64,000 nt of DNA from a virus: the IMG/VR virus record IMGVR_UViG_3300028027_000001. One strand, given 5' to 3'. Made by a program: the position numbers and the translations under genes. Below, piece after piece: positions 14,292-63,454 of the stretch. Below the pieces are notes generated by a model. It was not told the origin of the DNA. It worked only from the letters and a program-made list of their open reading frames with translations, and made no database searches. Every line of letters begins with the position of its first letter. Position 1 is the first letter of the stretch.

Positions 14292-14292
14292 T

Positions 14293-21050: not shown

Positions 21051-21107
21051 ATTTTTTATTTTATGTAAATATATGAAAAAAGCCTGGTTTAACCAAGCTT
21101 TCTTATT

Positions 21108-21569: not shown

Positions 21570-21575
21570 ATTATT

Positions 21576-22232
21576 TTATTTTAGGTATAAATGTTTAAGT
21601 ACTACTCTTTTAATTTGTTCTTTTATTAATTCATTTTTAGTTATACCCTTCAATTCTCTTTTTTTAGGATAAACTATTTTTTTATATGCCTCAGAAGGAG
21701 AGATTGATAAGTGTTCAGATAACCCCATTACTTTGTATTCATCAACGGGTGATAAATTTTTCTTAACAATCCAAACCCTATCATTAACCCAAGAAACATT
21801 ATATTTTTCAGATAATAATGATCTCCATCTTTCTAAAAAACTTTCATCTGAGTATATCCTTTCATGAGATTCAGTTAATCCACTAAAAGAAACTATGTCT
21901 GGGGAAATGGTAGATATAAATGAATATACTATTTTAAATAAAGTGGATGTTACTTTGAGAAAGCTTGAAGGGGTTTTTAGTTTATCAGATATATCACCCC
22001 ATTTCCAACTAACGTCCCAATATTTTGAAAGAGAATATTTTTTATGATCTATTGGGGCCCTATCAATGTCGTAATGATTTCTAAAATTTACAATAGCTAT
22101 TACATCTCCATCCAAAATGACTTTATATTCAAAATCATTTGACTTAAAGTAATCTAATGGAGAATCATATAACTCATTTAAAAAATGAGAATAATATTTT
22201 TTTACATATTCCTTAATTAACTTGGAATCCAT
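21576..22232 (-). CDS. Hypothetical protein, paralog family with 26969 and 46508
   Basis: FLKVTSTLFKIVYSFI...PDIVSFSG...IY. Confidence 0.7.
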   Translation of the reverse strand: MDSKLIKEYVKKYYSHFLNELYDSPLDYFKSNDFEYKVILDGDVIAIVNFRNHYDIDRAPIDHKKYSLSKYWDVSWKWGDISDKLKTPSSFLKVTSTLFKIVYSFISTISPDIVSFSGLTESHERIYSDESFLERWRSLLSEKYNVSWVNDRVWIVKKNLSPVDEYKVMGLSEHLSISPSEAYKKIVYPKKRELKGITKNELIKEQIKRVVLKHLYLK

Positions 22233-23527: not shown

Positions 23528-23538
23528 ATTTGTTATTG

Positions 23539-24456
23539 TTATTTTAAATTATTAATATTAAATTTATCTATTTCATCTTCCCATATTCTATAAAGAGTAT
23601 ATCCTTTTTCCATAGCTAATTTATTTTTTACTCTATCATTAATTCTATTTCTCTTTTGGGTTTCATTTAAGTCATTATAGCCTTTATCTTTACCATGCCA
23701 ATATATACCATCAATTTCTATCAATATGTTTTTATGGGGAATGTAAAAATCATATACCTTGTATGGGGTTTTACCTCCCTTATATTCTATAACATGTTGG
23801 AATATATGAGAAACATTATGCTCATCCAATATTTGTTTAAATTTTAATTCAGGTTTTGTATTAGTTCCATTTAAACTACCGTTAATTTGGTTTTTTTCGA
23901 TGTTGGATTTACATAAACACTTTCTAGAGCAATAGCTACCTATATTTATCTTTCCTTCATAATACTTTATTAAAGAAGTATATACTATAAATTCTTTATC
24001 ACAATATAAACAATTATTTATTTGGGTTGCATTTTTAGTCCTTTGAAGGTTTTTACATGAAACCGAGCAGTATTTTTGGGATGAGTTCCAATTTTGGGTT
24101 GTAAAGGGTTTAGAACAATATTCACAACTATTTTTTAATTTTTCTTGAGTAATACTGTTATAAAAACATTTTCGACATACATCATTATTAGCTGAAGATG
24201 TTAAAAATGCAGGATATGTTTGAAACTTTTGAGTTTCCCCACATGATGGGCAATTTTTTACCCACAGGTCTGGGTTTTTAGATATTCCTGTGTATTTGTT
24301 TTTGTGTTGGCTACTTTTATCATATTCTTCTTTTTTGCATTGAGAGCATGAATAATTTAACCCATCTTTAGTAGCATTGTTTTTATAAAAATATTTTACA
24401 TCTTTTTCAATATTGCACCTACAACATTTCTTTTTTTTCTCTTCCATTTTCAACAT
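23539..24456 (-). CDS. Putative homing endonuclease with Zn-finger repeats and a Vsr/DUF559-like nuclease domain
   Basis: Many CxxC and YCS..C motifs; TKPE...YDFY...IEIDGIYWH...D..KN...RIWE. Confidence 0.8.
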   Translation of the reverse strand: MLKMEEKKKKCCRCNIEKDVKYFYKNNATKDGLNYSCSQCKKEEYDKSSQHKNKYTGISKNPDLWVKNCPSCGETQKFQTYPAFLTSSANNDVCRKCFYNSITQEKLKNSCEYCSKPFTTQNWNSSQKYCSVSCKNLQRTKNATQINNCLYCDKEFIVYTSLIKYYEGKINIGSYCSRKCLCKSNIEKNQINGSLNGTNTKPELKFKQILDEHNVSHIFQHVIEYKGGKTPYKVYDFYIPHKNILIEIDGIYWHGKDKGYNDLNETQKRNRINDRVKNKLAMEKGYTLYRIWEDEIDKFNINNLK

Positions 24457-24565
24457 ATTTAATAATAATTTGTTCTACCAATTTTTGTAATTTTAAGCCG
24501 TTCTCATCACAATATTGTTTTAATTGAGTGTGGACTTCTTCTCTGATAATAATTGATTTTTTCAT
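24419..24565 (-). CDS. Ribbon-helix-helix-like small protein (48 aa, not in ORF track)
   Basis: MKKSIIIREEVHTQLKQYCDENGLKLQKLVEQIIIKYVENGREKKEML; ATATTTATA motif directly upstream. Confidence 0.7.
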   Translation of the reverse strand: MKKSIIIREEVHTQLKQYCDENGLKLQKLVEQIIIKYVENGREKKEML

Positions 24566-24583
24566 TTTATTATAAATATGTAG

Positions 24584-24605
24584 AGGGTATACCAAAGTAT
24601 ACCCT
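24584..24605. promoter_or_regulatory. Perfect 9-bp inverted repeat (operator or terminator)
   Basis: AGGGTATAC-CAAA-GTATACCCT upstream of the RHH gene promoter. Confidence 0.5.
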
Positions 24606-24619
24606 TGTATAACTTGATT

Positions 24620-25561
24620 TTAATAAATTAGTTTTGTATTTCTTGTTGTGTCTGGAGTATACGAAGTAGCATTCACTAATTCAAATGTTTCTCTAGGTTC
24701 CCAAGTATTAAATAACACATCAATTGCTTCAATAGCACGTTGACCCATAATTTCACTTGTAAATCCCGCTTCGTTTAATGCCCATTCTCTACCAGCTAAA
24801 CCTCTACGTTTTCTTTCTGTTGATTCTAATGAGTAAATATTGAAAATTTGTTCAGCTGCATCTTCAGGTTTACATCTATCATCACTGATGTATGGTGTTT
24901 TAGGTGAACCTTGGATTGAAATATTGGTTGGGAATACAGGAAACGCCCATTCACCGTGGTTTTTGTATGTGCCTCTGTGGTTTGAAGGGAAATCAGCTGT
25001 GAAGTCTAACCATTCACCATTTTCATTTTCAAATCTCATTTGATCTTGCATACCACCTTGAACGTTTGCTATAATTGGTGTTCCTGATACTATGGCCTCA
25101 GCTAAAGATAACCCAAACCCCTCATTACTACTTAATAATATTTGAGCATCAGCCATATTGTATAACAAATTCATGGCGTCTGGTGAGTTGCGGTCAGTTG
25201 AAAAATAGATGTTTGATTTATAATCAGCTAATAAATAATCTACTACAGCAATTAAATCAGTCCCGTGGTCACTCACTGGTTCAGTGTGAAGAAGGAACGC
25301 ACATTTTTGTGCTTGCTCAGGGGTTAATTTATCTAAAAATAAACGAAACGCCAGCAATGCATCTGGGATTTGTTTGCGGCGCATATTTCTAGAGTTAAAG
25401 AATAATACGAAATCGTATTCTTTCTCTTTAAAGAATTTTTTCTTCATATCTACTAACTCAAGGGTGTTGGGATCTAATGGTTTAAATACATTATGATTAA
25501 CACCATGAGGAAGATAAGATAAAAGGATTGGACTGTTTCTATTTGTTTTCATTTTGTTCAT
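24620..25561 (-). CDS. GT-B glycosyltransferase, C-terminal part
   Basis: YLPHGV, NSRNMRRKQ, NEGFGLSLAEA, PIIANVQGGMQDQ; lacks the N-terminal Rossmann domain. Confidence 0.85.
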   Translation of the reverse strand: MNKMKTNRNSPILLSYLPHGVNHNVFKPLDPNTLELVDMKKKFFKEKEYDFVLFFNSRNMRRKQIPDALLAFRLFLDKLTPEQAQKCAFLLHTEPVSDHGTDLIAVVDYLLADYKSNIYFSTDRNSPDAMNLLYNMADAQILLSSNEGFGLSLAEAIVSGTPIIANVQGGMQDQMRFENENGEWLDFTADFPSNHRGTYKNHGEWAFPVFPTNISIQGSPKTPYISDDRCKPEDAAEQIFNIYSLESTERKRRGLAGREWALNEAGFTSEIMGQRAIEAIDVLFNTWEPRETFELVNATSYTPDTTRNTKLIY

Positions 25562-37663: not shown

Positions 37664-38566
37664 CTAGTCAAAGCTGAAGAAATCATCGATAAATGCATTC
37701 AATTTGAGGTCCCAACCAATATCTGAGTATAAGGTTTGGAGTTTGTTTCGCATAATTGAATCAAATAGGCCCTCACGGTCAATATATTTGTTTATGATTT
37801 CAATAATTTCTGGGGGATCGTTATAGCCATTAAATCCAATTACATCTATTTTATACGGGTTTGGTTTAAGCTGTGCATAATACATTTTATCACCCAAGGA
37901 AAACTCAGGGTATTTTGCTGATTGTTTCTTAAATCGGATAAAGTCGTTATATAATGATGCTGCTCTTGTATTAACGGGGCATTTTTTCTTGAGGGTGGAA
38001 AATAATTCACCAGGCATTGGTGGGCGCTCAATATACTCCCCTAGTTTTTTAAGTCCGGTTGGTTTGAGTAGATGCTTCCAATCTATGGTGTTTAACGACG
38101 CTTTGAATTCGAGTACATCTTTGTCTATATCTTCTTTCGATTTACCAAACAATATATCCTTGATTACCTTCTCTCCAAAGTTACGGAATATAGGGGGAAA
38201 GTTTGATTTTATCAAATCTAACCCTTTAGTATCTAATTCTTCAACTTTTACACCTTCTTTATCTATAATGTACTGGGCGTATCTTCGTTTACCTGACCAG
38301 TATACTCTTTTTATTATGTATTCAGGTTTAAGGTCTAGGTAATGTTCCTTTGAGTTAAAGCATCTAGATGCTATGTTGTTTTGGAAATCATTTAATTTAT
38401 CACCTATTGATAGTTGGAGTTTCTTTACCTCTTCAATAATGATTTCATCTGGGGTATTATCATAGTCGGGAAGTCTGTGTCTCAGTATTGATTCTAATCC
38501 AATAATAAGGGAATCGGTGTCACTACCTCTAACATGGGTATTAATTTCTTCTACATTAAACTGCAT
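37664..38566 (-). CDS. Family B DNA polymerase, C-terminal part (palm motif C and thumb)
   Basis: GSDTDS, KRRYA, KGLD..KS. Confidence 0.9.
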   Translation of the reverse strand: MQFNVEEINTHVRGSDTDSLIIGLESILRHRLPDYDNTPDEIIIEEVKKLQLSIGDKLNDFQNNIASRCFNSKEHYLDLKPEYIIKRVYWSGKRRYAQYIIDKEGVKVEELDTKGLDLIKSNFPPIFRNFGEKVIKDILFGKSKEDIDKDVLEFKASLNTIDWKHLLKPTGLKKLGEYIERPPMPGELFSTLKKKCPVNTRAASLYNDFIRFKKQSAKYPEFSLGDKMYYAQLKPNPYKIDVIGFNGYNDPPEIIEIINKYIDREGLFDSIMRNKLQTLYSDIGWDLKLNAFIDDFFSFD

Positions 38567-39477
38567 GGGATTATTTTTTCTAGTATATAATTTATATCAT
38601 TAAATTGCATATATGATATTCTAATCAAATTTATTTTATTTAACTCACAATATTTATTCTTAACTTGATCTAAATATTTTGCTTTTTCAAATGACTTTTT
38701 CCCTCCAAAAAATTTAACAGGTTTATAATGCAATTCCCCATCAAATTCTATACATAAGTTCAAATGAGGGATATAAAAATCAAATCTCAAAACTGCATTA
38801 GTTTCAGGATTTCTACAATCATCAAATGTCTTTTGGGCAATATACGAAATATTTTTTGTTTTTAAAAATAATTCTATAGATTCCTCTCCTTTACTCCAAC
38901 TACACCTAGGACATCGTTGCCCTTGTAGGTGGTTTGAAAGTTGTTGATTAAACCATCCGTGTTGGGGGCATTTTATTTTAAATTTATTATCAAAATACCC
39001 AACATAAGAATCCCAATCGTATTCATATCCTAAATTTAAATCGTTAACTCTTGATTTTAAATCATCTAAAGGTATTGGTTTTCTATGGTTTTTACATTTA
39101 GGGCATCTCTGTTTCCCATGAACGTGATTTGTCCACAACATTTCAAACAGTCCATGTTCCTTGCATATTATAGAAACCTTATCCATTGTCTGAAAATCTG
39201 ATGTTATTAAAGAATAATCATACAGCCCATCATGGATGTGATTGGCTGTTCTAATTTTATCTTCATATGTGTGGTTTTTTCCAACACATTTTGGGCATTT
39301 AGATTTTTTTGCAATATGGTTGTCTAAAGATACTTCCCACACCCCGTGGATTGAGCATATTATTGGGTATTTTTCCATAACCCCCCTATATTCTTTTATT
39401 AGGGAATAATCATATTTATCCCCATGCACATTTTTTGATTTTTGAATAGCTTCTTCTAATGTTAATCGTTTTCCCAT
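38551..39477 (-). CDS. Putative homing endonuclease (repeated Zn modules plus Vsr-like domain) splitting polB
   Basis: Three I.C..HG.....NH.....CPKC repeats; SKGE...LRFDFY...IEFDGELHY...D..KN.YC...LIRI. Confidence 0.85.
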   Translation of the reverse strand: MGKRLTLEEAIQKSKNVHGDKYDYSLIKEYRGVMEKYPIICSIHGVWEVSLDNHIAKKSKCPKCVGKNHTYEDKIRTANHIHDGLYDYSLITSDFQTMDKVSIICKEHGLFEMLWTNHVHGKQRCPKCKNHRKPIPLDDLKSRVNDLNLGYEYDWDSYVGYFDNKFKIKCPQHGWFNQQLSNHLQGQRCPRCSWSKGEESIELFLKTKNISYIAQKTFDDCRNPETNAVLRFDFYIPHLNLCIEFDGELHYKPVKFFGGKKSFEKAKYLDQVKNKYCELNKINLIRISYMQFNDINYILEKIIPCSLM

Positions 39478-39518
39478 GTGTGGCGTTTTAATGTCTTGTA
39501 CGGTTATACATATTAACA

Positions 39519-41366
39519 TTATTTGTTAAGATATTCACTTTCAATTAATTTATTAGCATAACGAATAGTTTCTTGTATACTTCTTTGTCCGAATGTGGTA
39601 ATAGCGGATGAACACATTTTGTATCCGTCTGTGTATCGCCATGAATTAATTGCGAAACAACCATAAACACTGTTCAATAGGATTTTTATGGAATGTTGTT
39701 TTTGATTATATAATTTCCCTTTATCTACATCCCCCGAGTTATATGCATCTTTCATTATTTTTTTATATTCTTGTCTAAGCCTAAACCAATCGGATAATAA
39801 TTCAGAGACAATACTGGTTTTACTAGTATCAAACATAACACCATTAGCTGAAATTGTCCAGTTATTTTTTTCAATCAGTGCTAACAGGTCTTTTACTGTT
39901 ATTTTACCTTGCTTTAACTTATATGACCTTCTATCTAATTTTTCTACTGTTAATATTTTGTCTGGGTCTTCTTCTTTAAGTTCTTCAAAACTGCACCAAC
40001 AATTATAATTAGGGTTTGGTACTACGATTCTTCCCTTCATGGTTTCAACACCTAAATTTAATGATCTAATAATAGATGGGTATAGGGAAGCATAGTCGGC
40101 ATTAATTAACCAACTGTGAAGCCCAACCATTGGGGGGAGTAAATAACCACCAGCATATCCGTCTTTTCTTTTAACAGTTCGAAGATTTCTTTGTATAAAA
40201 GAACCTGATATTGTTTTAACTATAATATTGTTTCCTTCAATACTATGGATATGACCTTCGATTGTTGGAGTACCACGTTGATGAACTACCAAATCACCTA
40301 CTTCTATCTCACGTATGCTGGGATTAGTGGTGGTTGGTTTATTTGGGGAGATTATACCCTTTCTCTTTAAGTAAGTCAAAATGGCTCCTTCATTTAAAAT
40401 TGTATTATAATATATAGATTCATAAGGCGTATGACATAAATGTGAAATCAATATGGTTAACTCGATAAATTTCAGTTTATCCTCTAACGCTTCCAATATT
40501 TCAACATCTCGAATGTTGTAATCTATATATTTGTTTGGATCTTCTCTGAACAATGTGTCAAGATTACCATCATATTCAATTTTACCTAGTTTGGCATATT
40601 TGATGCCAATATCCCCCAGTTTATACGACGGTTCTTCCTTCATGATGTACTTCTTAAGCAACAACATAAAGTCCAAACAGTTAACTAAACCAATACGAAT
40701 TGGGGAATTGGGGTTATTTATGTTTTCATCGATTTTACCAATTGGAGATAAACGATATACTTCATCACCTAAACGTTTTTTAATACGATAATACAAATAG
40801 GGCATATCGAAGAAATCACTGTTGAAACCAACACAAATAGTCGGATCCATCTGTTCCCACTTGCTTAAGAATTTACGTAACAACGTGTTTTCATCTACAC
40901 ATGGGAGTATTGATTTACCGTCTGCTGATATTTCTTCAATTTGATTTTGTTTATCTAAAATGAAACATATCTTTTCCTTAGTAGTAGCATCAATTAAAGC
41001 AATAGCGGTTACTTCAGCATTTGCTTCCCTAATAGTGGTTGGATTTAGTGGCCCAATAATTTCAATCTCAATATCCAGGTATACTAGGTTGTGATATGAG
41101 GGCATGTCATCTGTTTCGTAGTATAAATCACGTAACAAAACCAGTTCCTTATCTATATCGCGCTCCAATATTTTAGGGTCTTTCCAATCATACTTTCCGT
41201 ATACTGGGGAGCACTTGTCACCAAATAAAGTGGTGTGTTCTCCATATTCATCTAGTCTATAGACTGTTGGTCTGTATTGGAATTTGGAAATGCCAGATTT
41301 GTCGTCACGTAAGAAATAATGATACGCGTCTTCTCCGTTACGTGAATAGTATACACTTTGAAACAT
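39519..41366 (-). CDS. Family B DNA polymerase, N-terminal part (exonuclease, motifs A and B)
   Basis: LDIE, GFNSDFFD, YNIRD, YAGGY, DYASLYPSII, KILLNSVYG, ITTFGQ. Confidence 0.93.
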   Translation of the reverse strand: MFQSVYYSRNGEDAYHYFLRDDKSGISKFQYRPTVYRLDEYGEHTTLFGDKCSPVYGKYDWKDPKILERDIDKELVLLRDLYYETDDMPSYHNLVYLDIEIEIIGPLNPTTIREANAEVTAIALIDATTKEKICFILDKQNQIEEISADGKSILPCVDENTLLRKFLSKWEQMDPTICVGFNSDFFDMPYLYYRIKKRLGDEVYRLSPIGKIDENINNPNSPIRIGLVNCLDFMLLLKKYIMKEEPSYKLGDIGIKYAKLGKIEYDGNLDTLFREDPNKYIDYNIRDVEILEALEDKLKFIELTILISHLCHTPYESIYYNTILNEGAILTYLKRKGIISPNKPTTTNPSIREIEVGDLVVHQRGTPTIEGHIHSIEGNNIIVKTISGSFIQRNLRTVKRKDGYAGGYLLPPMVGLHSWLINADYASLYPSIIRSLNLGVETMKGRIVVPNPNYNCWCSFEELKEEDPDKILTVEKLDRRSYKLKQGKITVKDLLALIEKNNWTISANGVMFDTSKTSIVSELLSDWFRLRQEYKKIMKDAYNSGDVDKGKLYNQKQHSIKILLNSVYGCFAINSWRYTDGYKMCSSAITTFGQRSIQETIRYANKLIESEYLNK

Positions 41367-41832: not shown

Positions 41833-42066
41833 TTATTTTTTAGCAGTTGTTGTTTTTGCTTTAGGTGCTTCAACGGTTTCCTCAACTGTTTCAACTACTG
41901 CCTCTACTTTAGCTGGTTTTTCTGCTTTTTCGATTGTAGTTTTAACGTTTGCTAATACTGTTTCTAATTCATCAATTAATGCAATGAATTCGTTGTATCT
42001 TACGTTTGGTTGAGACCATTCAGTTGTATGTCTCAAATCTGCTAAAATTTGTTGTGCTGTTCTCAT
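41833..42066 (-). CDS. Hypothetical protein with low-complexity C-terminus
   Basis: ORF packing. Confidence 0.65.
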   Translation of the reverse strand: MRTAQQILADLRHTTEWSQPNVRYNEFIALIDELETVLANVKTTIEKAEKPAKVEAVVETVEETVEAPKAKTTTAKK

Positions 42067-42624
42067 TTATTTTGTTTTTGAATTAAATTTACTAAGTTCG
42101 TCTTGCGTGAAGAATTGCGTTAAATTTGGCGAGAAATATTTTACGTTTTTCATTACCTTCATATCATCTCGGTAAACCACATAACCTTCACCAACTTTTT
42201 TATAACGGCATGGTCGACCTTGTTGTTCTGAGCGTATTTTAGCAGTTTCAAGAGCATCTTCTTCCGTCATACATATTTTGGATAAATTAGAGGCTTGGAC
42301 TTCAGCATATCCTGCTTCAAATTTGTCCTTTAAACCGAATACTAACGCACCATTTCCAGTACATACATATGTTATATCCAACAACGCGTCAAAAACACCT
42401 ACAATGTCATTAGCAGCAACCGCTTCTTTCAATTCGTCCAGTTCTTCCTGGATAAAATTAATTACGAAGTCAGCATCTGCTGCCTCGATGGTTGGTTCAG
42501 TTCGGTTTTGGTATGACTTACCCATCATGATGTTAAATTCTTCTACTTCACTGATGAATGGAATGTATTTTGATTTGAATAGGTTAGTACTCAAATCTGC
42601 TAGTTTTTTGTATATAGTTTTCAT
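42067..42624 (-). CDS. MazG-like (PRA-PH type) NTP pyrophosphohydrolase
   Basis: V.EFN, IQEELDEL.EA, DALLDITYV..G, EV..SNLSK, KV.K. Confidence 0.85.
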   Translation of the reverse strand: MKTIYKKLADLSTNLFKSKYIPFISEVEEFNIMMGKSYQNRTEPTIEAADADFVINFIQEELDELKEAVAANDIVGVFDALLDITYVCTGNGALVFGLKDKFEAGYAEVQASNLSKICMTEEDALETAKIRSEQQGRPCRYKKVGEGYVVYRDDMKVMKNVKYFSPNLTQFFTQDELSKFNSKTK

Positions 42625-42626
42625 AA

Positions 42627-43337
42627 TTATTTAAATTTGATCATTTCAATTACTTCTTGTTTTGCTGTTTTTTCATGATTAGCAAACACCCCAGATACTT
42701 CAGATGTAACCATAGATGCACCTTGATGTTTCACCCCTCTACAACTTACACAAGAGTGAGCAGAATCAATCATTACCATCACACCAATATTACCTACACA
42801 AATTTTAGAGATGGCATTATGTATAGCTACAGTTAATTGTTCTTGGATGGCTCCACGACGGCCAAAATGTTCTACAATGCGATTAAGTTTAGACAAACCT
42901 ACAACGTGTCCGTCTTTCCCAGGAATATATGCTATATGTACGTTTCCTCGAATGGTTTGGTGGTGGTGGGAACACTGGCTGGTTAAGGGGATGTTTTTTT
43001 CTAATACGATTCCATTATATCCGTCGGATGGGAACGAAGTAACGTCTGACATTAATTCGTATCGGCCTTTCCATAAGTCATTTACATAAGCTTTAGCTAC
43101 ACGACGTGGGGTATTGTCTGAATTTGGGTCGTCTTGCCACTTACACCCAAGGGCTGTTAAAAACTCCCCATATTTTAATGCCGCGGCATCAATAATTTGG
43201 GATTTTTCTTCATCATTTAATGAACGGTGTTCACCTTTAGCGATTAATTCAGCTAAATAAGTGGAAATACCATTAGCATGTCCTGCTGTTGCAATTTCGA
43301 GTTCCTCTACTTTTACTTTCTTTTCGTTTCTACTCAT
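42627..43337 (-). CDS. folE: GTP cyclohydrolase I
   Basis: TPRRVAK, SQCSHH, GLSKLNRIV, IQEQLT, HSCVSCRGV. Confidence 0.97.
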   Translation of the reverse strand: MSRNEKKVKVEELEIATAGHANGISTYLAELIAKGEHRSLNDEEKSQIIDAAALKYGEFLTALGCKWQDDPNSDNTPRRVAKAYVNDLWKGRYELMSDVTSFPSDGYNGIVLEKNIPLTSQCSHHHQTIRGNVHIAYIPGKDGHVVGLSKLNRIVEHFGRRGAIQEQLTVAIHNAISKICVGNIGVMVMIDSAHSCVSCRGVKHQGASMVTSEVSGVFANHEKTAKQEVIEMIKFK

Positions 43338-43389
43338 ATGTGTTTTTGTTTTTTATGTGAATATACAAATTTGGATTGTTATATCCAAA

Positions 43390-43893
43390 TTAAATTTTAT
43401 AAATTGCGTCTAAATTTCGACAATAACCACCATTATTGTCCATACCATAACCATACACCCATTCTTTATTTACTTCAATCCCATAAATAAATGGACAAGT
43501 TGGTCGTTTACAACGATATCTTTTAAGTAAAGTAACGGCCGTTAACGACGCAGGGTTATGCGATTTTAAGTGAGAATGAACCGCGTTCATAGTATTACCC
43601 GAGTCAAAGAAGTCATCAACTATATACACATGTTTCCCAGTTAAATCTAACTCGATATCCTTGATTATTTGTAGCTCGGATTGTTCCTGCCCACTATATG
43701 ACTTTACTCGCATAAAATCACATTGGATATTTAAGTCGATTTCGCGTACTAGGTCAGCGAAAAACATAAATCCACCATTTAACAGGCCTACCATCACCAC
43801 ATTGTTTAAATCAGGTTGGTGTTTTTTGGTGATAGCATTTCCCATTCTGCGAACGTGGTTTCTTATTACGGTTTTGGATATTATTTGTGACAT
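43390..43893 (-). CDS. Purine phosphoribosyltransferase (HPRT-like)
   Basis: LLNGGFMFFADL, KSY, PRPP loop VYIVDDFFDSGNT, WVYGYGMD...RNL. Confidence 0.9.
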   Translation of the reverse strand: MSQIISKTVIRNHVRRMGNAITKKHQPDLNNVVMVGLLNGGFMFFADLVREIDLNIQCDFMRVKSYSGQEQSELQIIKDIELDLTGKHVYIVDDFFDSGNTMNAVHSHLKSHNPASLTAVTLLKRYRCKRPTCPFIYGIEVNKEWVYGYGMDNNGGYCRNLDAIYKI

Positions 43894-43914
43894 GGTTGTG
43901 TGTATTTAGTTAAA

Positions 43915-44751
43915 TCAAACATAGCGGTTTTTCCCAAACATGAGGATGTGCAAACGAGGACAAAATCTCCACCCACGCTTAAGTGCTTGTTCAGCTACCC
44001 ACCCTGTTCTTGAGTTTAATGTATTTACATCTACTCCCTCTGGCATTAAGCATATGTCTGATGGTTGGAAGTGTCTAAGTTGAGATAATATACTTTCAAT
44101 CTCCTCAATATCTTGCTCAGTAGCAACAACAAATTTCAATTGGAAGTCGCATTCTCTAAATCTTCGATCATTTATGTATCGTTGTATTACTGTAATATCA
44201 ATACGATCGCGCTCATGACGTTCAGCCCACTTTTGTTTATATTCAACACCGGAATTTTTCAAATTAGCTACCCATGGGGTTGATGATGCTAATTTAGGTG
44301 ACATAGACATTAAATCTGAATATCTTGAAATACGATCATCGTATATGGTGGCATTGGTTTCAATGGTAATATGGTAATGTAATTCATGTAATTGTTTACA
44401 TAACTCAGCTAATGCGTCTGTTTGCATAGTAGGTTCACCACCCGAAATAACAACATGGTTAATGTTTTGATCATCTGTATTTTCTAATACGATTTTAACG
44501 ATATCCTCAATTTCCATTTGGTTTTTTTCCGGGTTGTGGCTGGAATATGGGGTGTCGCATAGTGAGCCGTTTCCGTCTAGTCCAACCCATGCACATCTCA
44601 AATTACAAGCAGATGTACGAATGAACAGACATGCGGTTCCTGTTAACTTTCCTTCTCCTTGAAATGTGCCACTATATTGGAATCCAGTGGAGTCCTCATT
44701 TAGTTTGCCTTTGATTGGGAATATACCCCCATGTACTAAATTTAATTTCAT
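43915..44751 (-). CDS. queE: 7-carboxy-7-deazaguanine synthase (radical SAM)
   Basis: TFQGEG, FIRTSACNLRC...CDTPYS, ISGGEP, IETNA, SPKL, LKFVV, RLH. Confidence 0.93.
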   Translation of the reverse strand: MKLNLVHGGIFPIKGKLNEDSTGFQYSGTFQGEGKLTGTACLFIRTSACNLRCAWVGLDGNGSLCDTPYSSHNPEKNQMEIEDIVKIVLENTDDQNINHVVISGGEPTMQTDALAELCKQLHELHYHITIETNATIYDDRISRYSDLMSMSPKLASSTPWVANLKNSGVEYKQKWAERHERDRIDITVIQRYINDRRFRECDFQLKFVVATEQDIEEIESILSQLRHFQPSDICLMPEGVDVNTLNSRTGWVAEQALKRGWRFCPRLHILMFGKNRYV

Positions 44752-44805
44752 ATAACTTATTTTTGGTTAAAGATACAAATGGCTCCTTTTGGAGCCAAAT
44801 GTTTT

Positions 44806-45048
44806 TTAAGATAACATACTCCTCAATTGCCCCTCAGTTAATACACCTGATTTTTTATCAATTGCTCTACCATTTTCTAATACTACTACAGTAGGTACTG
44901 AGCGGATACCATATTCCGCCACGGTTTGTGGGTCTTGGTCTACGTCTATGAATTTTACTGGGTGGTATTGACTTATAGCATCAATAGTGGGTCTGAATGA
45001 TTTGCATGGGTTGCAAAATGTTCCGTAAAAGTAGATTAGTTGTTTCAT
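44806..45048 (-). CDS. Thioredoxin-like protein (start revised to 45048)
   Basis: FCNPCK, IDVD, IRSVPT. Confidence 0.85.
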   Translation of the reverse strand: MKQLIYFYGTFCNPCKSFRPTIDAISQYHPVKFIDVDQDPQTVAEYGIRSVPTVVVLENGRAIDKKSGVLTEGQLRSMLS

Positions 45049-45138
45049 TTGATTATGTATTTTACAATAAGTGGGTGATGAAATTCGGGATCCCATGAGG
45101 TGGTATACGTCCAAACTGGGTGGATGTTACCATATTGG

Positions 45139-45634
45139 CTAATTGTTTGGGTATCCATATGTATCTTCTTGATATATTGATGAGTTGTTGTCGTTTTCAA
45201 AACATTCCACTTTGATTACTTTACAACGCCCACCATCGGTTTTGGATAGGACATCATTGAATTTGTCGAATACAAGTTTAGCACATGATTCAGCACCCAT
45301 CTTGTCCATAACTCTCAACGCACATAAACCTTCCATGGCCATTGATTCGAAAAAATCTAAATATGGATCATCTTTCTCAATTAACATGGTGTGATCCCAC
45401 ATATAATTCATCCATGATTTTAGACCGTTACCCACAGGTGCATCTTTAAACCCTCCATAATCCACGATCCAGTTCATATCGTCCAATTGGTTTTCTTCAA
45501 TTGGTTCATTGGATGCAAACCATACTTTGAATTTCAAAGAGTAGCCATGAGTTAGTTGACAGTGACTGTGAGATGCCTTCCATTGTCTCAAGGCAACAGA
45601 ATAGTTGTCGAATTTTTTTAGTTGAAATGTACAT
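45139..45634 (-). CDS. queD: 6-carboxytetrahydropterin synthase; natural start separated by a 1-nt frameshift in an A7 run
   Basis: HSHCQLTHGY, WIVDYG, WDH, GAES.A, VECFE; upstream MYISTKK is out of frame with FDNYSVALRQ. Confidence 0.85.
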
Positions 45635-45635
45635 A

Positions 45636-46301
45636 TTATTTTGATTTAAAAATTATTTTGATTGAATCATATTTGAATGTTTCTTTAGGGTGGGTAACCG
45701 ACCAATTGGAACAATCCCAAAATATTTTGGAATATACGGAAATAGTATCACCAACAAAATATCCTGGTATAGGTCCCACTATTTTTTTACTCCAGAGCAT
45801 GCCTGATTCTGGTTTATATTCGTCTGCGGGTTGATACATATTACCTTCAAAGTATTTTTTTAAATAAATTCCATATTCGCTAACCATGGGAACCAGGGTA
45901 TTTTTGAATTGATCTAAGCGAAGAAAAGTATCTTTTACTGCTATTGGTTTGCCTGTTGGGAATTTATAACTACCGAAGGGTTGGTATAGTGGTAATATTA
46001 TTCCTAAATCTTCTCCAAGTATCCCCAAACACCAGTATGAACTGCAATCAAATGTGGCTTCAATTACAGTTACACCGTTGTATTTGTAGTGGTCGATAAG
46101 ATCGGAAGCCTCTACATACATGTTTATTCGATTTGAATTTGAATTGGAATCAATGGGTACCAAATAGTACCCGTTGATATCCCTTTCATAATTCATTGTT
46201 AATTTGGACTGTTTCCCATTTAAAAATGGGTATGGGTCGACTTCTACTTTTTTACAACCCACAGTAGCTAAAATTGCTACTAAATATAACCACGTTTTCA
46301 T
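45636..46301 (-). CDS. Putative lipoprotein
   Basis: MKTWLYLVAILATVG-C-KKVEVD lipobox with charged residues after the Cys. Confidence 0.65.
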   Translation of the reverse strand: MKTWLYLVAILATVGCKKVEVDPYPFLNGKQSKLTMNYERDINGYYLVPIDSNSNSNRINMYVEASDLIDHYKYNGVTVIEATFDCSSYWCLGILGEDLGIILPLYQPFGSYKFPTGKPIAVKDTFLRLDQFKNTLVPMVSEYGIYLKKYFEGNMYQPADEYKPESGMLWSKKIVGPIPGYFVGDTISVYSKIFWDCSNWSVTHPKETFKYDSIKIIFKSK

Positions 46302-46348
46302 ATAACCTTTATTTTTAATCATGTTGGAATATACGAATTAGCATTTGA

Positions 46349-46504
46349 TTAAACAAGTTCTTCTGCAATTCCTATTATTTCAGATACTACCAAAGCAGAT
46401 ACTGCTAAAGGAATGTTTACTAATAAAAGCAAATATCCTACAATGCGTACTCCGGATTTTACGAAGCTAACTAGTTGATGTAATTTTGGATCTGGTTGTT
46501 TCAT
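46349..46504 (-). CDS. Small membrane protein (51 aa, not in ORF track)
   Basis: MKQPDPKLHQLVSFVKSGVRIVGYLLLLVNIPLAVSALVVSEIIGIAEELV. Confidence 0.65.
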   Translation of the reverse strand: MKQPDPKLHQLVSFVKSGVRIVGYLLLLVNIPLAVSALVVSEIIGIAEELV

Positions 46505-46507
46505 TGT

Positions 46508-47050
46508 TTATATGCGATTTAAGATTATACTATGCATGTCTCCCAAGTCTGGGTGATGCCACGATATTATGGATTTTCTGGAATATCCTGGTATTTTGTT
46601 TGTTTTGGTTAGTTGGGAGTATATTGGGAAATATCCACTTGAATCTGTACACGATATAGATAGATATTGTGGGTGTTTAGAAGTGGATGCATCTTGTATT
46701 ATTTTATGTATAGTTGAATATATTTTAATTAAATTTTCCCTACCACCTTTGGGTTCGGTTAATGGGATGTCTCCTTTAGGAGTAAAACCAATATCTAATA
46801 TACCACCAACAAATAATGTTTTGGATTTATCACCAGGAAATATAAATCGAATGGGTAATTCGTTTAATACAAATGAATACATAGTGTCACCTGTAGTGAA
46901 ATAACCACCGTCTCCTTCATACGTTACCTCAAATGCGTTCTCTGGGTTGAGTGATATTTCTTTTACTACTTGTTTACTTTCAACTAAATAGTGATTTGGT
47001 ATGCGGTTTGAAGGTAAAACGGATTGAAGGAGATCGGTAAGTTTAATCAT
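46508..47050 (-). CDS. Hypothetical protein, paralog family with 21576 and 26969
   Basis: MIKLTDLL leader; LIKIYSTIHKII...PQYLSIS...IY. Confidence 0.7.
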   Translation of the reverse strand: MIKLTDLLQSVLPSNRIPNHYLVESKQVVKEISLNPENAFEVTYEGDGGYFTTGDTMYSFVLNELPIRFIFPGDKSKTLFVGGILDIGFTPKGDIPLTEPKGGRENLIKIYSTIHKIIQDASTSKHPQYLSISCTDSSGYFPIYSQLTKTNKIPGYSRKSIISWHHPDLGDMHSIILNRI

Positions 47051-47052
47051 GG

Positions 47053-47967
47053 TTATGCATTATGAGTGGATAAAATATGTTCAGCGTGTGCTCGAGCTAC
47101 TTCCCAACTTACTTCACCAGTTTCGTCTTCATATTGTACTGGGTCTGGTTTGCCTAATTTGATGAATGCCTCAATGCGTTCAACTGAGGATGCTGATTTA
47201 TAGTCTGAATTACCTGATGGGTATGGTTTGTATGATGTGTTTGTGCGTTTGTACACCTCATTAAATTCCAGTCCTAATTCACGGCATAATATTTCCCCAT
47301 CTTGTAAAATAGTAAATTTATCTCCATGTAAGTATGGTGTAAAATATCCTACTTTTTCTGCACCCCAGTTTCCTAAACGAAACGCATGGTCGTCAGCATC
47401 ACGAAATTCTTGTCTGCAGTCAGGATAAACTCCAAAATCACCCGCGTGGATTCCTAGAGCAATATCACATGGTTCATCAGTTTTACCAGATATAGATAAT
47501 GCAATCGCTTGTACAATGGATGCAAACATCTTGTTACGGTTTGGAACTACGGTTTGCCTTTGATTTTCCTCAGCGTAGTGGCCTTCAGGTACGTCTTCCC
47601 CACCTTCTACTAATGTGGAATTAAGTAAATCAACTAAACCGTCTAGTTTAATTACACGGTAGTTAATTAGAGATTTATTTGATGCTGATTCTTTCCATTC
47701 CTTCTGCATTTTATCCAAGTCTAACCCTTCTTGTTTGTCTCCAGGGATGCCGTCTTTTACAGAAATATTATTAATTTTTTGGGATATGTAACCATTAATA
47801 TAATCAACTAATGATTGAGCGCGCTCCAATTCTACTCTATGTTTTTGACCATAGTCAAATGAAATAGCTGTTACAGTATCGAATTCTTTTAAGCAACGAA
47901 GTAACAATGTACTCGAGTCCATCCCACCACTCAGTGAAACTACGGCGTGTTTTCTTGTGTTTTTCAT
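47053..47967 (-). CDS. queC: 7-cyano-7-deazaguanine synthase
   Basis: SLSGGMDS, FDYGQKH..E, VVPNRN, GIHAGD..YPDCR.EF. Confidence 0.95.
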   Translation of the reverse strand: MKNTRKHAVVSLSGGMDSSTLLLRCLKEFDTVTAISFDYGQKHRVELERAQSLVDYINGYISQKINNISVKDGIPGDKQEGLDLDKMQKEWKESASNKSLINYRVIKLDGLVDLLNSTLVEGGEDVPEGHYAEENQRQTVVPNRNKMFASIVQAIALSISGKTDEPCDIALGIHAGDFGVYPDCRQEFRDADDHAFRLGNWGAEKVGYFTPYLHGDKFTILQDGEILCRELGLEFNEVYKRTNTSYKPYPSGNSDYKSASSVERIEAFIKLGKPDPVQYEDETGEVSWEVARAHAEHILSTHNA

Positions 47968-47968
47968 A

Positions 47969-48220
47969 TTATTTTATTTTGTTTTCAAATATTTGATTAA
48001 ATGTGTTTTCTAAATCATCTAATATTCCATCTAAATAATCGAATAAATAATCTTCTTGTTCAATATCCAAAGTACCATCCAATACATCAATGAAAGGAAT
48101 CTCAACATTACTATAGAACATTTTAACTAGATCTGGCTCATTGGATTGGATGTATAATAAGGCATTGTCTAATCTTTTACCCAAATATACTAAATCACTT
48201 ACTTCTTCTTCGTAACTCAT
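47969..48220 (-). CDS. Hypothetical acidic protein
   Basis: ORF packing. Confidence 0.55.
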   Translation of the reverse strand: MSYEEEVSDLVYLGKRLDNALLYIQSNEPDLVKMFYSNVEIPFIDVLDGTLDIEQEDYLFDYLDGILDDLENTFNQIFENKIK

Positions 48221-48377
48221 CTGTTAATGTTTTAATTCCATCTCCCAATTTCTCTACTTTTAATTTAAATTCGGGATCTATACCGTCATTTTGCTCACTA
48301 ATCCCTGCTAATTTTTGCATGCGTCTTCTTTCTTCGTATGCTTTAACAATAGTTTCACATCTGTTTTCTTTTTTCAT
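48195..48377 (-). CDS. Hypothetical protein with RMQKLAGISE motif
   Basis: Shared motif. Confidence 0.6.
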   Translation of the reverse strand: MKKENRCETIVKAYEERRRMQKLAGISEQNDGIDPEFKLKVEKLGDGIKTLTDELRRRSK

Positions 48378-48511
48378 AATTTATCTGATATTTGTTGTAA
48401 CGTATCTAAATCTTCCTCACTTAAGCGTAAACGAACAAATCTACTATATAGTTTTTTAATCATAGCTAGATATTGTTCATCCATGATGTTTGATTGGTTT
48501 GAATAACTCAT
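48374..48511 (-). CDS. Small protein (45 aa, not in ORF track)
   Basis: MSYSNQSNIMDEQYLAMIKKLYSRFVRLRLSEEDLDTLQQISDKL; ATGA-coupled. Confidence 0.5.
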   Translation of the reverse strand: MSYSNQSNIMDEQYLAMIKKLYSRFVRLRLSEEDLDTLQQISDKL

Positions 48512-48522
48512 AATAATATATT

Positions 48523-48774
48523 TTAAATAAATGGACAATCTTGTAAGTCACCTAATGTAGCATCGTCCATTGGGTCTGGTTCAGCGAAAAAACCATCTAA
48601 GAAGTCCTTCGGGTATAAAAATACCATACCTGCAAATGTGGGGTTGGATATAGGACGCTGTTTTGGTTGTATTTTACTTTTGTAAGCTGCTGATGCTACT
48701 TTTCTACCTAATTCAGGACCAGCTGCTTTTCCTAAATAGTCGTACAATGATAAAAATGTTTCTCTTGATTCCAT
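48523..48774 (-). CDS. Hypothetical phage protein
   Basis: SLYDYLGKAAG.ELG...V.LYP..FL. Confidence 0.7.
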   Translation of the reverse strand: MESRETFLSLYDYLGKAAGPELGRKVASAAYKSKIQPKQRPISNPTFAGMVFLYPKDFLDGFFAEPDPMDDATLGDLQDCPFI

Positions 48775-48828
48775 AACTTTTATTTTTAAATTTGATTGAA
48801 TATACGAACTTGATCTATGGACTCCAAA

Positions 48829-49623
48829 TTAGAGCCCATTAATTTCACGAAATTTTCTTACATTGTACTCCACTAATTCCATAGCAATATCATCCATTGG
48901 TATGTCCTGGTAGTTGTTCATGTTTGATGTGGGTTTACGGTTTACTCCGTCTTCTCTATATACAGTACCATCTAAAGCAGCCATGACTGGGTTTGATGTA
49001 TCTAGTGATTCGATGAATGGCATCTCTCTATATAGGGAAAATTCAGCAGGCCACGCCGTACCAAGTAAATGTACTCTATCACTACTTAATAATATACCTT
49101 CTTCGTACATTTTGGATATGGCTATGAAACGGCCTATTGCTTTACCAAAGTCTGGGTTTAATGCGGGGCATAGTTTGTTGTAATATGATGCACCATATGA
49201 AAATGCGAATTTTTTGTAACCTAAATCACGATATGCTTGAACGCATAATATTGCTTCATGGAATGACTTTGCTTGGATTACAGCACATTTAGTAGTTGTT
49301 TCGGGTACTACTATGGTTGACCATCTCCTCGCGTTTACAACTGATGTATCGTAGTCTTCCCACGCATCAGGAATGAAGAATGTAGTTGGTTCTAGAATGT
49401 TTACCCATTTTGTAAGTAATTCATCTGATACACTTTCTCCTAATTCGTGTAAGCTGTTGTCGAGGTATATTTCGATACCGTCTGTTTTACATTGCAAAAA
49501 ATGATTACGGTATTGCTCGTTTTCCTCCATTAAGTGAGGAAGACAGTACTGATATGGCATGTGTTTTTTACTCCATTCAAGTAATGCGAAGGGCACCTCA
49601 TGGCTGTACTTTACTTTTTTCAT
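48829..49623 (-). CDS. TGT-fold protein, DpdA-like deazapurine transglycosylase
   Basis: LDNS, IPD, VIQ, VHLLG and SLDTS in the order typical of TGT barrels; adjacent to queC. Confidence 0.7.
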   Translation of the reverse strand: MKKVKYSHEVPFALLEWSKKHMPYQYCLPHLMEENEQYRNHFLQCKTDGIEIYLDNSLHELGESVSDELLTKWVNILEPTTFFIPDAWEDYDTSVVNARRWSTIVVPETTTKCAVIQAKSFHEAILCVQAYRDLGYKKFAFSYGASYYNKLCPALNPDFGKAIGRFIAISKMYEEGILLSSDRVHLLGTAWPAEFSLYREMPFIESLDTSNPVMAALDGTVYREDGVNRKPTSNMNNYQDIPMDDIAMELVEYNVRKFREINGL

Positions 49624-61521: not shown

Positions 61522-62553
61522 TTATGCATGGCAGCTGATACACTCATTGTCTGTAGCAATACTATCACCACGTAATGAACTTTCACTGCGCATATAATAA
61601 AGGGTTTTGATTCCCTCTTTCCATGCCAATTTATGCACATCACTAATTACTTTTGGTGGAGTGTTTGGATCAAACATAAGATTAAGTGATATGGCTTGGT
61701 CAACATATTTTTGACGTATACCATTTTGTCTAACGATTTCAAATGGGTTGATTTCCTTGAATGTTAAGAACACCTCTTTTTCCTCGTCCGATAAAATATA
61801 GTCTGGTAAATTAAGTACACTTCCTTTGTCTTCTTGGATTTGCTTCCAAACACTGTCGATATTGTAACCTTTCGCCTCTAATACGCGCTCAAGCACTGGG
61901 TTTTTCTTGATGAATGTACCTTTTGCTGTTTTCAAGTTGAATACATTTGCTGGGATTGGCTCGATTGAGGCTGATACACCTCCAGAAATATTTGCATTTG
62001 ATACTGTTGGAGCTACTGCAACGTGGTGGGTATGGCGCAATCCTGTTCCTTTACACCATTCTGGTTCACCATATAATTCGGCTTGTTCTCTAGATGCACG
62101 CAATGCACCTTGTTCAATTTTATCAAACATTAAACGTGTGTACGAATTTGCTTGTAAACCGACAAATGGGATGTTGTGTTCTTGGAGGAATGTATGCCAT
62201 CCCAACACACCAATACCAATTGCTCTACCTTTTACTGCAGACCGGTATGTGTTTTCTAATAATTTTACGTTTTTGGAACGGTCGATGAATTCTTGTAATA
62301 CACCTTCCAAAAACCAACATGCTAGTTCGGGTAAGTCCATCCCATTTTCGAATTTGTAGTCTTTCCACTCGTCCCAACGAGCCAAGTTAAGTGACGATAA
62401 ACAGCAAATGAATGAGTGAAGTTCATCTGTGTATAACGTTATTTCTGAACAATTATGTACTACTGCGCCGTTTGCATAGAAGTTGTGGTTGTCTTGTACC
62501 GTTACATCATATACCGGTTTTGTTGTGTTTACTTTTGTAATTTTTAATGCCAT
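61522..62553 (-). CDS. nrdA: Split intein C-fragment fused to the C-terminal part of class I ribonucleotide reductase alpha
   Basis: VYDVTVQDNHNFYANGAVVHN|CSEI; CCLSSLNL, GIGVLG, APT, DQAISLN, KTLYY, C-terminal CxxC. Confidence 0.92.
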   Translation of the reverse strand: MALKITKVNTTKPVYDVTVQDNHNFYANGAVVHNCSEITLYTDELHSFICCLSSLNLARWDEWKDYKFENGMDLPELACWFLEGVLQEFIDRSKNVKLLENTYRSAVKGRAIGIGVLGWHTFLQEHNIPFVGLQANSYTRLMFDKIEQGALRASREQAELYGEPEWCKGTGLRHTHHVAVAPTVSNANISGGVSASIEPIPANVFNLKTAKGTFIKKNPVLERVLEAKGYNIDSVWKQIQEDKGSVLNLPDYILSDEEKEVFLTFKEINPFEIVRQNGIRQKYVDQAISLNLMFDPNTPPKVISDVHKLAWKEGIKTLYYMRSESSLRGDSIATDNECISCHA

Positions 62554-62556
62554 AAT

Positions 62557-63357
62557 TTATTGTGTTTTAAATTTCCATATATAACCGTATATGGTGGTGT
62601 ATTTTCCTTTAGCGCATTGTCCTATCGCCGCTCCTGTTTTTTTACCCAAAGCACGACCTGCTTCTGTTGTACTGGCAAATTCCCGAATGAATATACCATC
62701 TTTGCTGTACTGAAACACGGGTTTGTTGTTTTTTCCCAAATTGTTCAATCGTGCCTTTTCTTTTGATTCGGGTGATTGGGTTTTTCCTTTCATAGGCGAT
62801 ACTCTACCTTTGTGTCCCTTTGATTTACCAACATGGGCTTCGCCTATTTTTCTACTGTGTTCTTCACTGCGTGGGGGTTTTGGTTTTTGATTGGCCAAAC
62901 TAATTTTCTGTTTAATTTCATCGTTCATGAAATCGGGTCTAGGTATACCTTTGTGCGAGTGTTCCTTTGAATGTTTCTTACCAATTTTACCTTCGGACAT
63001 TCTACGTTTAGTTTCTTCACTTTTGGGACCTGACCCATTGTCATATAAATCACAAAATAACGCCATTTCCCACCCAAATTCTTCTATGTGCTGTAATTTG
63101 TAATGCAGTTCACGCTCTAATAGTATGTCAATATCACATATTTCCAGTAAATAAAATGTATGGTTTTCAAACCCATATTTGTTGAATGATCTGTGTATCC
63201 TAGGTTGCGATTTTGTGTGTCCATTTTTGTATATGTTCATCCTAGCTTGCATATGTTGTGATTTACCAATATATACCTTCCCACTAGGGGATACAATTTT
63301 ATATATCCCGGATATCTCTTCCTTTTGATTCGCGATACTTTCTTTTAAGTTTTTCAT
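62557..63357 (-). CDS. GIY-YIG homing endonuclease with NUMOD3/NUMOD1-like repeats
   Basis: SGIYKI.SPSGKVYIGKS; SEETKRRMS; C-terminal VFQYS.DG.FI.EF.S..EA...GYIWKF. Confidence 0.9.
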   Translation of the reverse strand: MKNLKESIANQKEEISGIYKIVSPSGKVYIGKSQHMQARMNIYKNGHTKSQPRIHRSFNKYGFENHTFYLLEICDIDILLERELHYKLQHIEEFGWEMALFCDLYDNGSGPKSEETKRRMSEGKIGKKHSKEHSHKGIPRPDFMNDEIKQKISLANQKPKPPRSEEHSRKIGEAHVGKSKGHKGRVSPMKGKTQSPESKEKARLNNLGKNNKPVFQYSKDGIFIREFASTTEAGRALGKKTGAAIGQCAKGKYTTIYGYIWKFKTQ

Positions 63358-63454
63358 CGATTGCTTGCTTATTTGCCCAGTAGTATTTTTTACTGTATTC
63401 TCGTTGGGCGAGAACACGTTCTTCTTCTGTTTGGAATTTTTTAATACGTCCCAT
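63299..63454 (-). CDS. Small basic protein (51 aa, not in ORF track) overlapping the GIY-YIG start
   Basis: MGRIKKFQTEEERVLAQREYSKKYYWANKQAIDEKLKRKYRESKGRDIRDI; ATATTTATA just upstream. Confidence 0.6.
   Translation of the reverse strand: MGRIKKFQTEEERVLAQREYSKKYYWANKQAIDEKLKRKYRESKGRDIRDI

Follow-up and report, generated by a model that had tools for sequence, protein, structure and literature searches.

A guanine-type phosphoribosyltransferase beside GTP cyclohydrolase in DpdA3-type DNA-modification clusters of phages, and its possible role in guanine recycling

The stretch of viral DNA considered here, 64,000 nucleotides of IMG/VR virus record IMGVR_UViG_3300028027_000001 from an uncultured phage (hereafter the window), carries what its gene content identifies as a DpdA3-type 7-deazaguanine DNA-modification operon, a known and published kind of system, with an embedded gene for a phosphoribosyltransferase (PRTase) resembling bacterial Hpt. 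We find that a 6-oxopurine-type PRTase is conserved but optional in DpdA3 phages, that it is linked to the gene for GTP cyclohydrolase, and that in other phages it is fused to this enzyme. In the reading we favour, to which we assign a probability of roughly 0.55, the PRTase would recycle guanine ejected by DpdA3 into the substrate pool of FolE, the GTP cyclohydrolase I that starts the pathway. The initial annotation of this DNA had placed the PRTase outside the canonical pathway. This is true of the phage 7-deazaguanine literature searched, where we found no discussion of a PRTase ('phosphoribosyl' occurs 0 times in PMC10516641 and PMC10484667); the gene is, however, annotated in the GenBank records of Flavobacterium phage immuto, Cellulophaga phage phiST and Campylobacter phage CP220, where it has been present unremarked.

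Viral loci were fetched via DpdA3 and scored for cluster genes, yielding 80 loci, in 37 of which the cluster is fully visible. A PRTase is carried by 27 of these 37 clusters, and two different 6-oxopurine PRTase families occupy the same slot: 17 clusters hold the Hpt-like type seen in the window and 10 a small Gpt-like type (130–150 aa), while 10 have none. The slot of the Hpt-like gene between QueE and FolE is the same in seven IMG/VR contigs (43–86% identity). Thirty loci contain visible genes for a PRTase and for a GTP cyclohydrolase, and in each of them the two genes are at most 733 bp apart, in either order; in three of these loci (3/30) the place of FolE is taken by its non-homologous counterpart FolE2 (PF02649). 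FolE2 (PF02649, ~1e-70) was seen at the FolE position in L059:16496-17581, L064:14168-15205, L027:16406-17416 and L020, and the PRTase, if present, adjoins it.

The Gpt-like type is also the one found in immuto (gp211, beside FolE), phiST (CGPG_00045) and CP220 (163869-164282, missed by PF00156 and recovered by a custom profile); among solved structures, it is closest to P. horikoshii 1VDM, S. solfataricus GpT-1 and GpT-2, and E. coli XGPRT. Two genomes illustrate that the PRTase is optional: neither G003 (166 kb, terminal repeats, 100% complete), with DpdA3 and FolE, nor G006 (96% complete), with DpdA3 and FolE2, yielded a PRTase by PF00156 or the custom profile. In the complete genome G004, the PRTase lies ~100 kb from the cluster. 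Among relatives differing in QueC type the PRTase is 84–86% identical, and on this comparison its sequence is independent of the end-product module. We rejected genome G005 as a case of the PRTase moving with FolE, as the whole PRTase-FolE-MazG-PolB block is displaced there by a 9.5-kb insertion.

Its fusion to FolE is the strongest argument that the PRTase may act together with the cyclohydrolase step, where the pathway starts. In a tblastn search, the immuto PRTase matches the first ~120 residues of a 'GTP cyclohydrolase' of Vibrio phage VpKK5, and also matches Sphingomonas, Stenotrophomonas and 42-kb Pseudomonas phages. In the proteins of VpKK5 and of Pseudomonas phage Baskent_P4_1 (Table 1), the Pfam FolE domain begins at residue ~117, and the preceding part retains the motifs RGG..PA, VDDIxDSG and WVVFPWE and matches the Gpt-like profile with 98% probability (hhalign). 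These two phages resemble the window in coupling a 6-oxopurine-type PRTase to GTP cyclohydrolase I within a phage queE-queC-queD-folE cluster; unlike that of the window, their PRTase is Gpt-like and covalently fused. VpKK5, in which a gene annotated as TGT/DpdA-type (TGT, tRNA-guanine transglycosylase) directly follows FolE, is classed in Queuovirinae, a subfamily that, unlike the fully substituted DpdA3 phages, modifies only part of its guanine where measured, in a motif-specific manner (PMC10484667). In the phage 7-deazaguanine literature searched, we found no mention of a PRTase–FolE fusion.

The window protein itself is predicted to be a genuine 6-oxopurine (guanine/hypoxanthine) PRTase. 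It aligns over its full length with E. coli Hpt (1g9s, 2.6e-28) and far more weakly with S. solfataricus GpT-2 (4z1o, 7.7e-8), and it scores well above the PF00156 cut-off and, at 136.7 bits, just under the 150-bit cut-off of TIGR01203. As in bacterial Hpt (E. coli 1G9S, TIGR01203), we recognise the loop binding 5-phosphoribosyl-1-pyrophosphate (PRPP), with its acidic pair and D-S-G-x-T (DD..D[ST]G), the catalytic Ser-Tyr loop (K-S-Y), an aromatic stacking residue, and the C-terminal Asp and Arg. It differs from bacterial Hpt in having Trp in place of the stacking Phe, Arg in place of the O6-binding Lys, and a location within a phage DNA-modification operon.

The last Asp of the D-[ST]-G loop (D137 of human HGPRT) is presumably the residue that contacts purine N7, and to our knowledge adenine, orotate and uracil PRTases have a residue other than Asp there. 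It is invariant in the PRTases of DpdA3 clusters (23/23) and is kept in the Gpt-like type as well (D71, invariant). An alignment of the query PRTase with the 150 representatives of 50%-identity clusters closest to it, 151 sequences altogether, shows D at this position in 145 and E in 6. The Arg at the O6-binding position is found in 52 of the same 151 sequences, enriched among the closest relatives; because it is shared so widely, the Lys-to-Arg change is a natural variant, and a trait specific to the phage clusters is ruled out. When the window PRTase was used in tblastn, no good phage match was obtained beyond this group, and the matches that were returned look like bacterial Hpt from records that are contaminated or fragmentary.

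The transglycosylase and its companions place the locus among known systems. The DpdA3 group was named by Hutinet/Cui et al. 2023 (PMC10516641), who describe phages immuto, phiST and CP220 as having every guanine replaced. In tblastn, the window DpdA3 is 33% identical to the immuto 'DNA guanine transglycosylase' (2e-37) and 28% identical to the CP220 protein (4e-23), while Pfam gives a weak DUF6610 match only. An AlphaFold2 (AF2) model based on 30 homologues has a mean confidence (pLDDT) of 94; in structural comparisons it comes closest to DpdA, the DNA preQ0 insertase of bacteria (7ui4; VIA Z 17.3, 233 residues, root-mean-square deviation 3.3 Å), tied with archaeal (arcTGT) and bacterial TGT at Z ~17, with a Foldseek probability of 1.0 to TGT. 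The protein is a minimal TGT-fold barrel of 264 residues in which the CxCxxC zinc motif is absent; D55, D86 and D208, candidates for the catalytic Asp residues of the TGT superfamily, are invariant among the 30 homologues, and the order of the motifs is TGT-like. These matches bear out the initial annotation, which had proposed a 7-deazaguanine system with a DpdA-family enzyme. We expect that DpdA3 acts on DNA, although attempts to obtain its activity in E. coli failed (PMC10516641).

Alongside this TGT-fold protein, phage-encoded FolE, QueD, QueE and QueC are all present in the window, as expected of a DpdA3-type system, in which FolE, QueD and QueE are accompanied by QueC or DpdL in one genome. 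The window shares DpdA3, FolE, QueD and QueE with immuto, phiST and CP220, its long QueC and its MazG-like enzyme match those of immuto (QueC 64% identity, 2.6e-131 by tblastn; FolE 64% identity), its PRTase adjoins FolE as in immuto, and the cluster stands beside a replicative polymerase as in the DpdA3 phages. Unlike in those three phages, its PRTase is Hpt-like, with 167 aa, rather than small and Gpt-like, and the polymerase is a split PolB rather than PolA. It also differs from the known DpdA3 phages in that no QueF, DpdN, DpdL or P-loop kinase was detected: searches with immuto QueF and DpdN as queries and Pfam over 50 window ORFs (open reading frames) gave no homologue of QueF, DpdN or DpdL in the window, in agreement with the lack of queF remarked on initially. 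QueF is likewise absent from the relatives G003, G005 and G006. Since no QueF was found, the modified base is probably preQ0 or 7-amido-7-deazaguanine (ADG), present in DNA as dPreQ0 or dADG.

In the reading we favour, FolE, QueD, QueE and QueC would convert GTP into the 7-deazaguanine base (preQ0 or ADG), which DpdA3 would swap for guanine in the DNA, each swap setting one guanine free. The PRTase would then join the released guanine to PRPP to give GMP, and host kinases would phosphorylate GMP further to GTP and so return it as substrate to FolE, encoded next to the PRTase, closing the loop. At the same time, the PRTase may clear guanine, which is poorly soluble and would be a competitor of the deazaguanine base during exchange; because guanine is a competing substrate of TGT-type enzymes, its removal should favour complete exchange. 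By a rough estimate, a genome of ~160 kb with 33% GC and a burst of 100 would free ~5 million guanines per cell, a millimolar concentration. As this is far above the solubility of guanine, which is in the tens of micromolar, product removal is plausible as a real constraint. Such a PRTase would be a flux-boosting helper that host Hpt or Gpt can replace, and not an obligatory step. The use of two PRTase families, the N7 Asp, the linkage to FolE and FolE2 alike, the fusion with FolE, the dispensability of the gene and its indifference to QueC type fit a guanine/hypoxanthine PRTase feeding FolE.

Several observations weigh against this reading. GMP is two kinase steps short of the FolE substrate. 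TubE is a purine-type PRTase that loads 7-carboxy-7-deazaguanine (CDG) onto PRPP (PMC6112128), and the Gpt-like type shares a broad clade with 4Z1O, a structure aligned with TubE in the supplement of the same paper. The O6-binding Lys (LLxK) is replaced by Arg in all 23 cluster PRTases, which could mean an altered base pocket. All three fully substituted phages (3/3) have a PRTase, an observation also in keeping with a function linked to complete replacement; in phiST it lies beside ribonucleotide reductase (RNR), ~19 kb from FolE, and in CP220 it lies ~54 kb from FolE. Finally, the synteny of the 80 loci is partly inherited, so the loci counted for adjacency are not independent cases.

Three other explanations were weighed against guanine recycling. 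The PRTase might serve general purine salvage, raising GMP and IMP from any hypoxanthine or guanine in the cell to supply GTP both to FolE and to nucleic-acid synthesis, without any link to DpdA3. Its ordinary Hpt-like sequence would suit this, as would the location of the phiST gene in a nucleotide-metabolism block, the distant gene of G004, and perhaps the Gpt-like PRTases of jumbo Pseudomonas phages (PA5oct group). We nevertheless regard it as unlikely, given that the PRTase is tightly beside or fused with GTP cyclohydrolase in most clusters and that the window PRTase has no good phage match outside the group; the idea also overlaps with guanine recycling, from which it differs only in the source of the guanine. 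A lower probability still goes to a route through the nucleotide pool before replication, the second of the two models put forward in the initial annotation (there with preQ0 as the base), in which the PRTase would load CDG, preQ0 or ADG onto PRPP, kinases and RNR would lead to the dNTP, the MazG-like enzyme would remove dGTP and PolB would incorporate the analogue, in parallel to the dZ (2-aminoadenine) phages, with DpdA3 at most mopping up residual guanine or having a secondary or different role. Complete replacement of guanine is easier to picture at the level of the nucleotide pool, every fully substituted phage has a PRTase, and the window places an NTP pyrophosphohydrolase and PolB downstream of the PRTase and FolE genes and holds a piece of RNR; the invariant Arg at the base pocket, the proven CDG-PRPP phosphoribosyltransferase activity of TubE (PMC6112128), the failed attempts to show DpdA3 activity in E. 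coli and the ADG nucleoside detected in CP220-infected cells, as cited by PMC10516641, point the same way.

What tells against this route is that the window PRTase is much nearer to Hpt than to 4Z1O and that both PRTase types keep the N7 Asp, a residue that on general structural grounds a C7 cyano or carboxyl group would face. DpdA3 genomes that are complete (G003) or 96% complete (G006) do without a PRTase, neither the window nor the flanks of its relatives yielded a dedicated NMP kinase, relatives of the MazG-like enzyme occur in many phages without que genes, and nothing points to dGTP specificity of the enzyme itself. The PRTase is moreover fused to FolE in VpKK5, which has a DpdA-type gene, and the partial, motif-specific modification measured in members of the Queuovirinae (PMC10484667) is not obtainable by a dNTP route. 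As in the tubercidin cluster with TubE (Liu et al. 2018, PMC6112128) and reportedly the toyocamycin cluster with ToyH, a purine-type PRTase lies among FolE, QueD and QueE; the TubE reaction is the one that the pre-replicative route would require. Unlike the window, those clusters have no insertion enzyme such as DpdA3 and instead include GMP-reductase, decarboxylase and phosphatase genes (bioRxiv 10.64898/2026.04.15.718813). Tailoring genes of the PF00478 or PF01977 type were not found among the 10 cluster ORFs scanned per library, and the likeness to TubE is judged through 4Z1O, which is distantly similar to the window PRTase. Between the two models of the initial annotation, guanine recycling fits the comparative evidence best, namely the cyclohydrolase linkage, the fusion, the two guanine-type PRTase families, the N7 Asp and the dispensability, and the pre-replicative route is disfavoured as the main route.

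An exchange on free nucleotides is, to our minds, very unlikely. Here, the MazG-like enzyme would convert dGTP to dGMP, DpdA3 would swap the base on the free nucleotide, a kinase and PolB would follow, and the PRTase would salvage the guanine. MazZ of the dZ phages is a precedent for the step from dGTP to dGMP, and in each of the three characterised phages with full substitution, immuto, CP220 and phiST (Table 1), DpdA3 has a P-loop kinase-like gene (AAA_28 / AAA_18) beside or near it and an NTP hydrolase nearby. The minimal DpdA3 barrel without the zinc subdomain motif would also be compatible with such a substrate, and attempts to obtain DpdA3 activity in E. coli failed (PMC10516641). Yet no counterpart of the P-loop kinase was detected in the window, nor in its relatives over the 10 kb around DpdA3, the best structural match of DpdA3 is a DNA preQ0 insertase, tied with tRNA enzymes, and the MazG-like family is widespread.

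The MazG-like protein on which both nucleotide-level schemes draw is, from its motifs, an active-looking NTP pyrophosphohydrolase. It scores 35.9 bits against the PF01503 cut-off of 21.3, and its EExxE...DxxD metal-binding motif is invariant in 6 homologues. It is 61% identical to immuto gp208, which is encoded between FolE and DpdA3, and in nearly all relatives its gene follows the cyclohydrolase; the relatives in phages without que genes are distant (27–45% identity). Sequence and profile searches of the PDB gave only non-significant matches (E of at least 0.14), with no similarity detected to a solved MazZ, and a deeper homologue search returned close relatives only; the AF2 model from a 6-sequence alignment (pLDDT 53) is too poor for use. 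The window resembles the dZ phages (PurZ, MazZ, DatZ, DpoZ) by logic only, in having an NTP pyrophosphohydrolase and a polymerase near genes for a non-canonical purine. Unlike theirs, its cluster lacks a PurZ-like nucleotide-level synthase and an HD-type dATPase/dGTPase, and has a base-exchange enzyme.

All genes across 37.6–49.7 kb of the window lie on the minus strand. Pfam, PHROG, NCBIfam and tblastn recover the nine genes named in the initial annotation in the order given there: DpdA3-like, QueC, QueD, thioredoxin, QueE, PRTase, FolE and MazG-like, then the split PolB (Table 1). Within the stretch from QueE through PRTase and FolE to MazG, spacing ranges from a short overlap to ~50 bp, and given these small gaps the four genes probably form a single operon. 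The thioredoxin gene is kept inside the cluster in most of the 80 DpdA3 loci.

Features beyond those noted initially are the two ORFs between queC and queD, the small conserved ORFs, a frameshift in queD and the split in polB. By tblastn across the related loci L001-L009, the 180-aa ORF between queC and queD has no homologue and is probably a lineage-specific insert, and the adjacent lipoprotein gene has homologues only in the closest relatives, L002 and L003; without a Pfam, PHROG or NCBIfam match, the predicted lipoprotein is probably no pathway enzyme. The first of the four small ORFs after DpdA3 (48523-48774) also adjoins DpdA3 in the relatives and in immuto (tblastn identity 43–89% in L002-L006 and 42% in immuto). 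The natural ATG of queD at 45634 lies one base past the upstream stop and reads M-Y-I-S-T-K-K as in relatives, and the frame is then lost at an A7 run (45613-45619), where A6 would restore it into the QueD body; the longest ORF in the QueD frame is 45139-45591, with a TTG start at 45591. This break may reflect an error in sequencing, slippage or a genuine frameshift. A DUF723 homing-endonuclease-like gene splits polB; the endonuclease is also present in L004, while L002, L005 and L006 lack it and have adjacent PolB parts that are still separate tblastn segments.

Table 1 Coordinates of cluster genes in the window and of selected genes in other phages (locus handle before the colon).
Feature	Coordinates	Strand	Length (aa)	Evidence or remark
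DpdA3-subfamily transglycosylase	48829-49623	-	264	phrog_19058 7e-27; tblastn to immuto and CP220
Four small ORFs, function unassigned	47969-48774	-	83, 54, 60, 83	
QueC, long form	47053-47967	-	304	PF06508 1.2e-34; phrog_1550 9e-40
ORF between queC and queD	46508-47050	-	180	no family match (Pfam, PHROG, NCBIfam)
Predicted lipoprotein, between queC and queD	45636-46322	-	228	signal peptide ending in lipobox-like Cys
QueD (6-carboxytetrahydropterin synthase)	45139-45634	-		PF01242 4.6e-10; phrog_2389 2.6e-29
Thioredoxin	44806-45114	-		PF00085 3.3e-15
QueE (radical-SAM 7-carboxy-7-deazaguanine synthase)	43915-44751	-		phrog_2076 8e-50; TIGR03365 1e-21; PF04055
Hpt-like 6-oxopurine PRTase	43390-43893	-	167	PF00156 5e-22; TIGR01203 6e-40
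FolE (GTP cyclohydrolase I), first pathway enzyme	42627-43337	-		PF01227 3e-43; phrog_2197 2e-59
MazG-like all-alpha NTP pyrophosphohydrolase	42067-42624	-	185	PF01503 1e-8; phrog_671 1.7e-23
Conserved ORF after MazG-like gene	41833-42066	-	77	tblastn 39-92% in L002, L004, L005, L006
PolB in two pieces	39519-41366 and 37664-38566	-		NCBIfam and Pfam
DUF723 homing-endonuclease-like gene splitting polB	38551-39519	-		
PRTase-FolE fusion, VpKK5 gp32	L018:5998-6900		300	N-terminal Gpt-like domain and FolE
PRTase-FolE fusion, Pseudomonas phage Baskent_P4_1	L017:5971-6864		~300	N-terminal Gpt-like domain and FolE
P-loop kinase-like, immuto gp203	L011:13478-14002			
P-loop kinase-like, CP220 gp057	L012:12810-13352			
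P-loop kinase-like, phiST CGPG_00066	L010:7570-8049			

Outside the cluster, the RNR large-subunit piece of the window (61522-62553) lies in a region, 61522-63417, where the C-terminal part of the protein (PF02867 2e-46) opens with an intein C-terminal splicing motif and has a GIY-YIG/NUMOD endonuclease gene before it, which suggests an interrupted RNR gene. At 19556-25561 lies a series of glycosyltransferase genes, two of GT2 and two of GT1/GT4 type, one of them matching 'GT4 in conflict systems', together with a protein that has a weak match to a PvuRts1I-like N-domain. A distantly related locus, L007, has FolE, QueD, QueE, the Hpt-like PRTase and PolB, followed after PolB by a homologue (14167-14511, 38% identity) of DpdL of phiST, which is a proposed CDG decarboxylase; the phage probably makes deoxy-7-deazaguanosine (dDG). 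No QueC was found at the fetched locus and no DpdA3 match on the contig, which is 23% complete, and as such a fragment it is not usable as a case of a system without DpdA.

No phages other than those of the DpdA3 type are known to replace all of the guanine in their DNA, and the literature asserts that they do so by post-replicative exchange. A guanine-type PRTase would add a helper step to this system, by which guanine is recycled in a closed loop or, with lower probability, bases pass through the nucleotide pool. If this is true, the PRTase step would be ecologically common, since the DpdA3 family is abundant, with >2100 metagenomic homologues.

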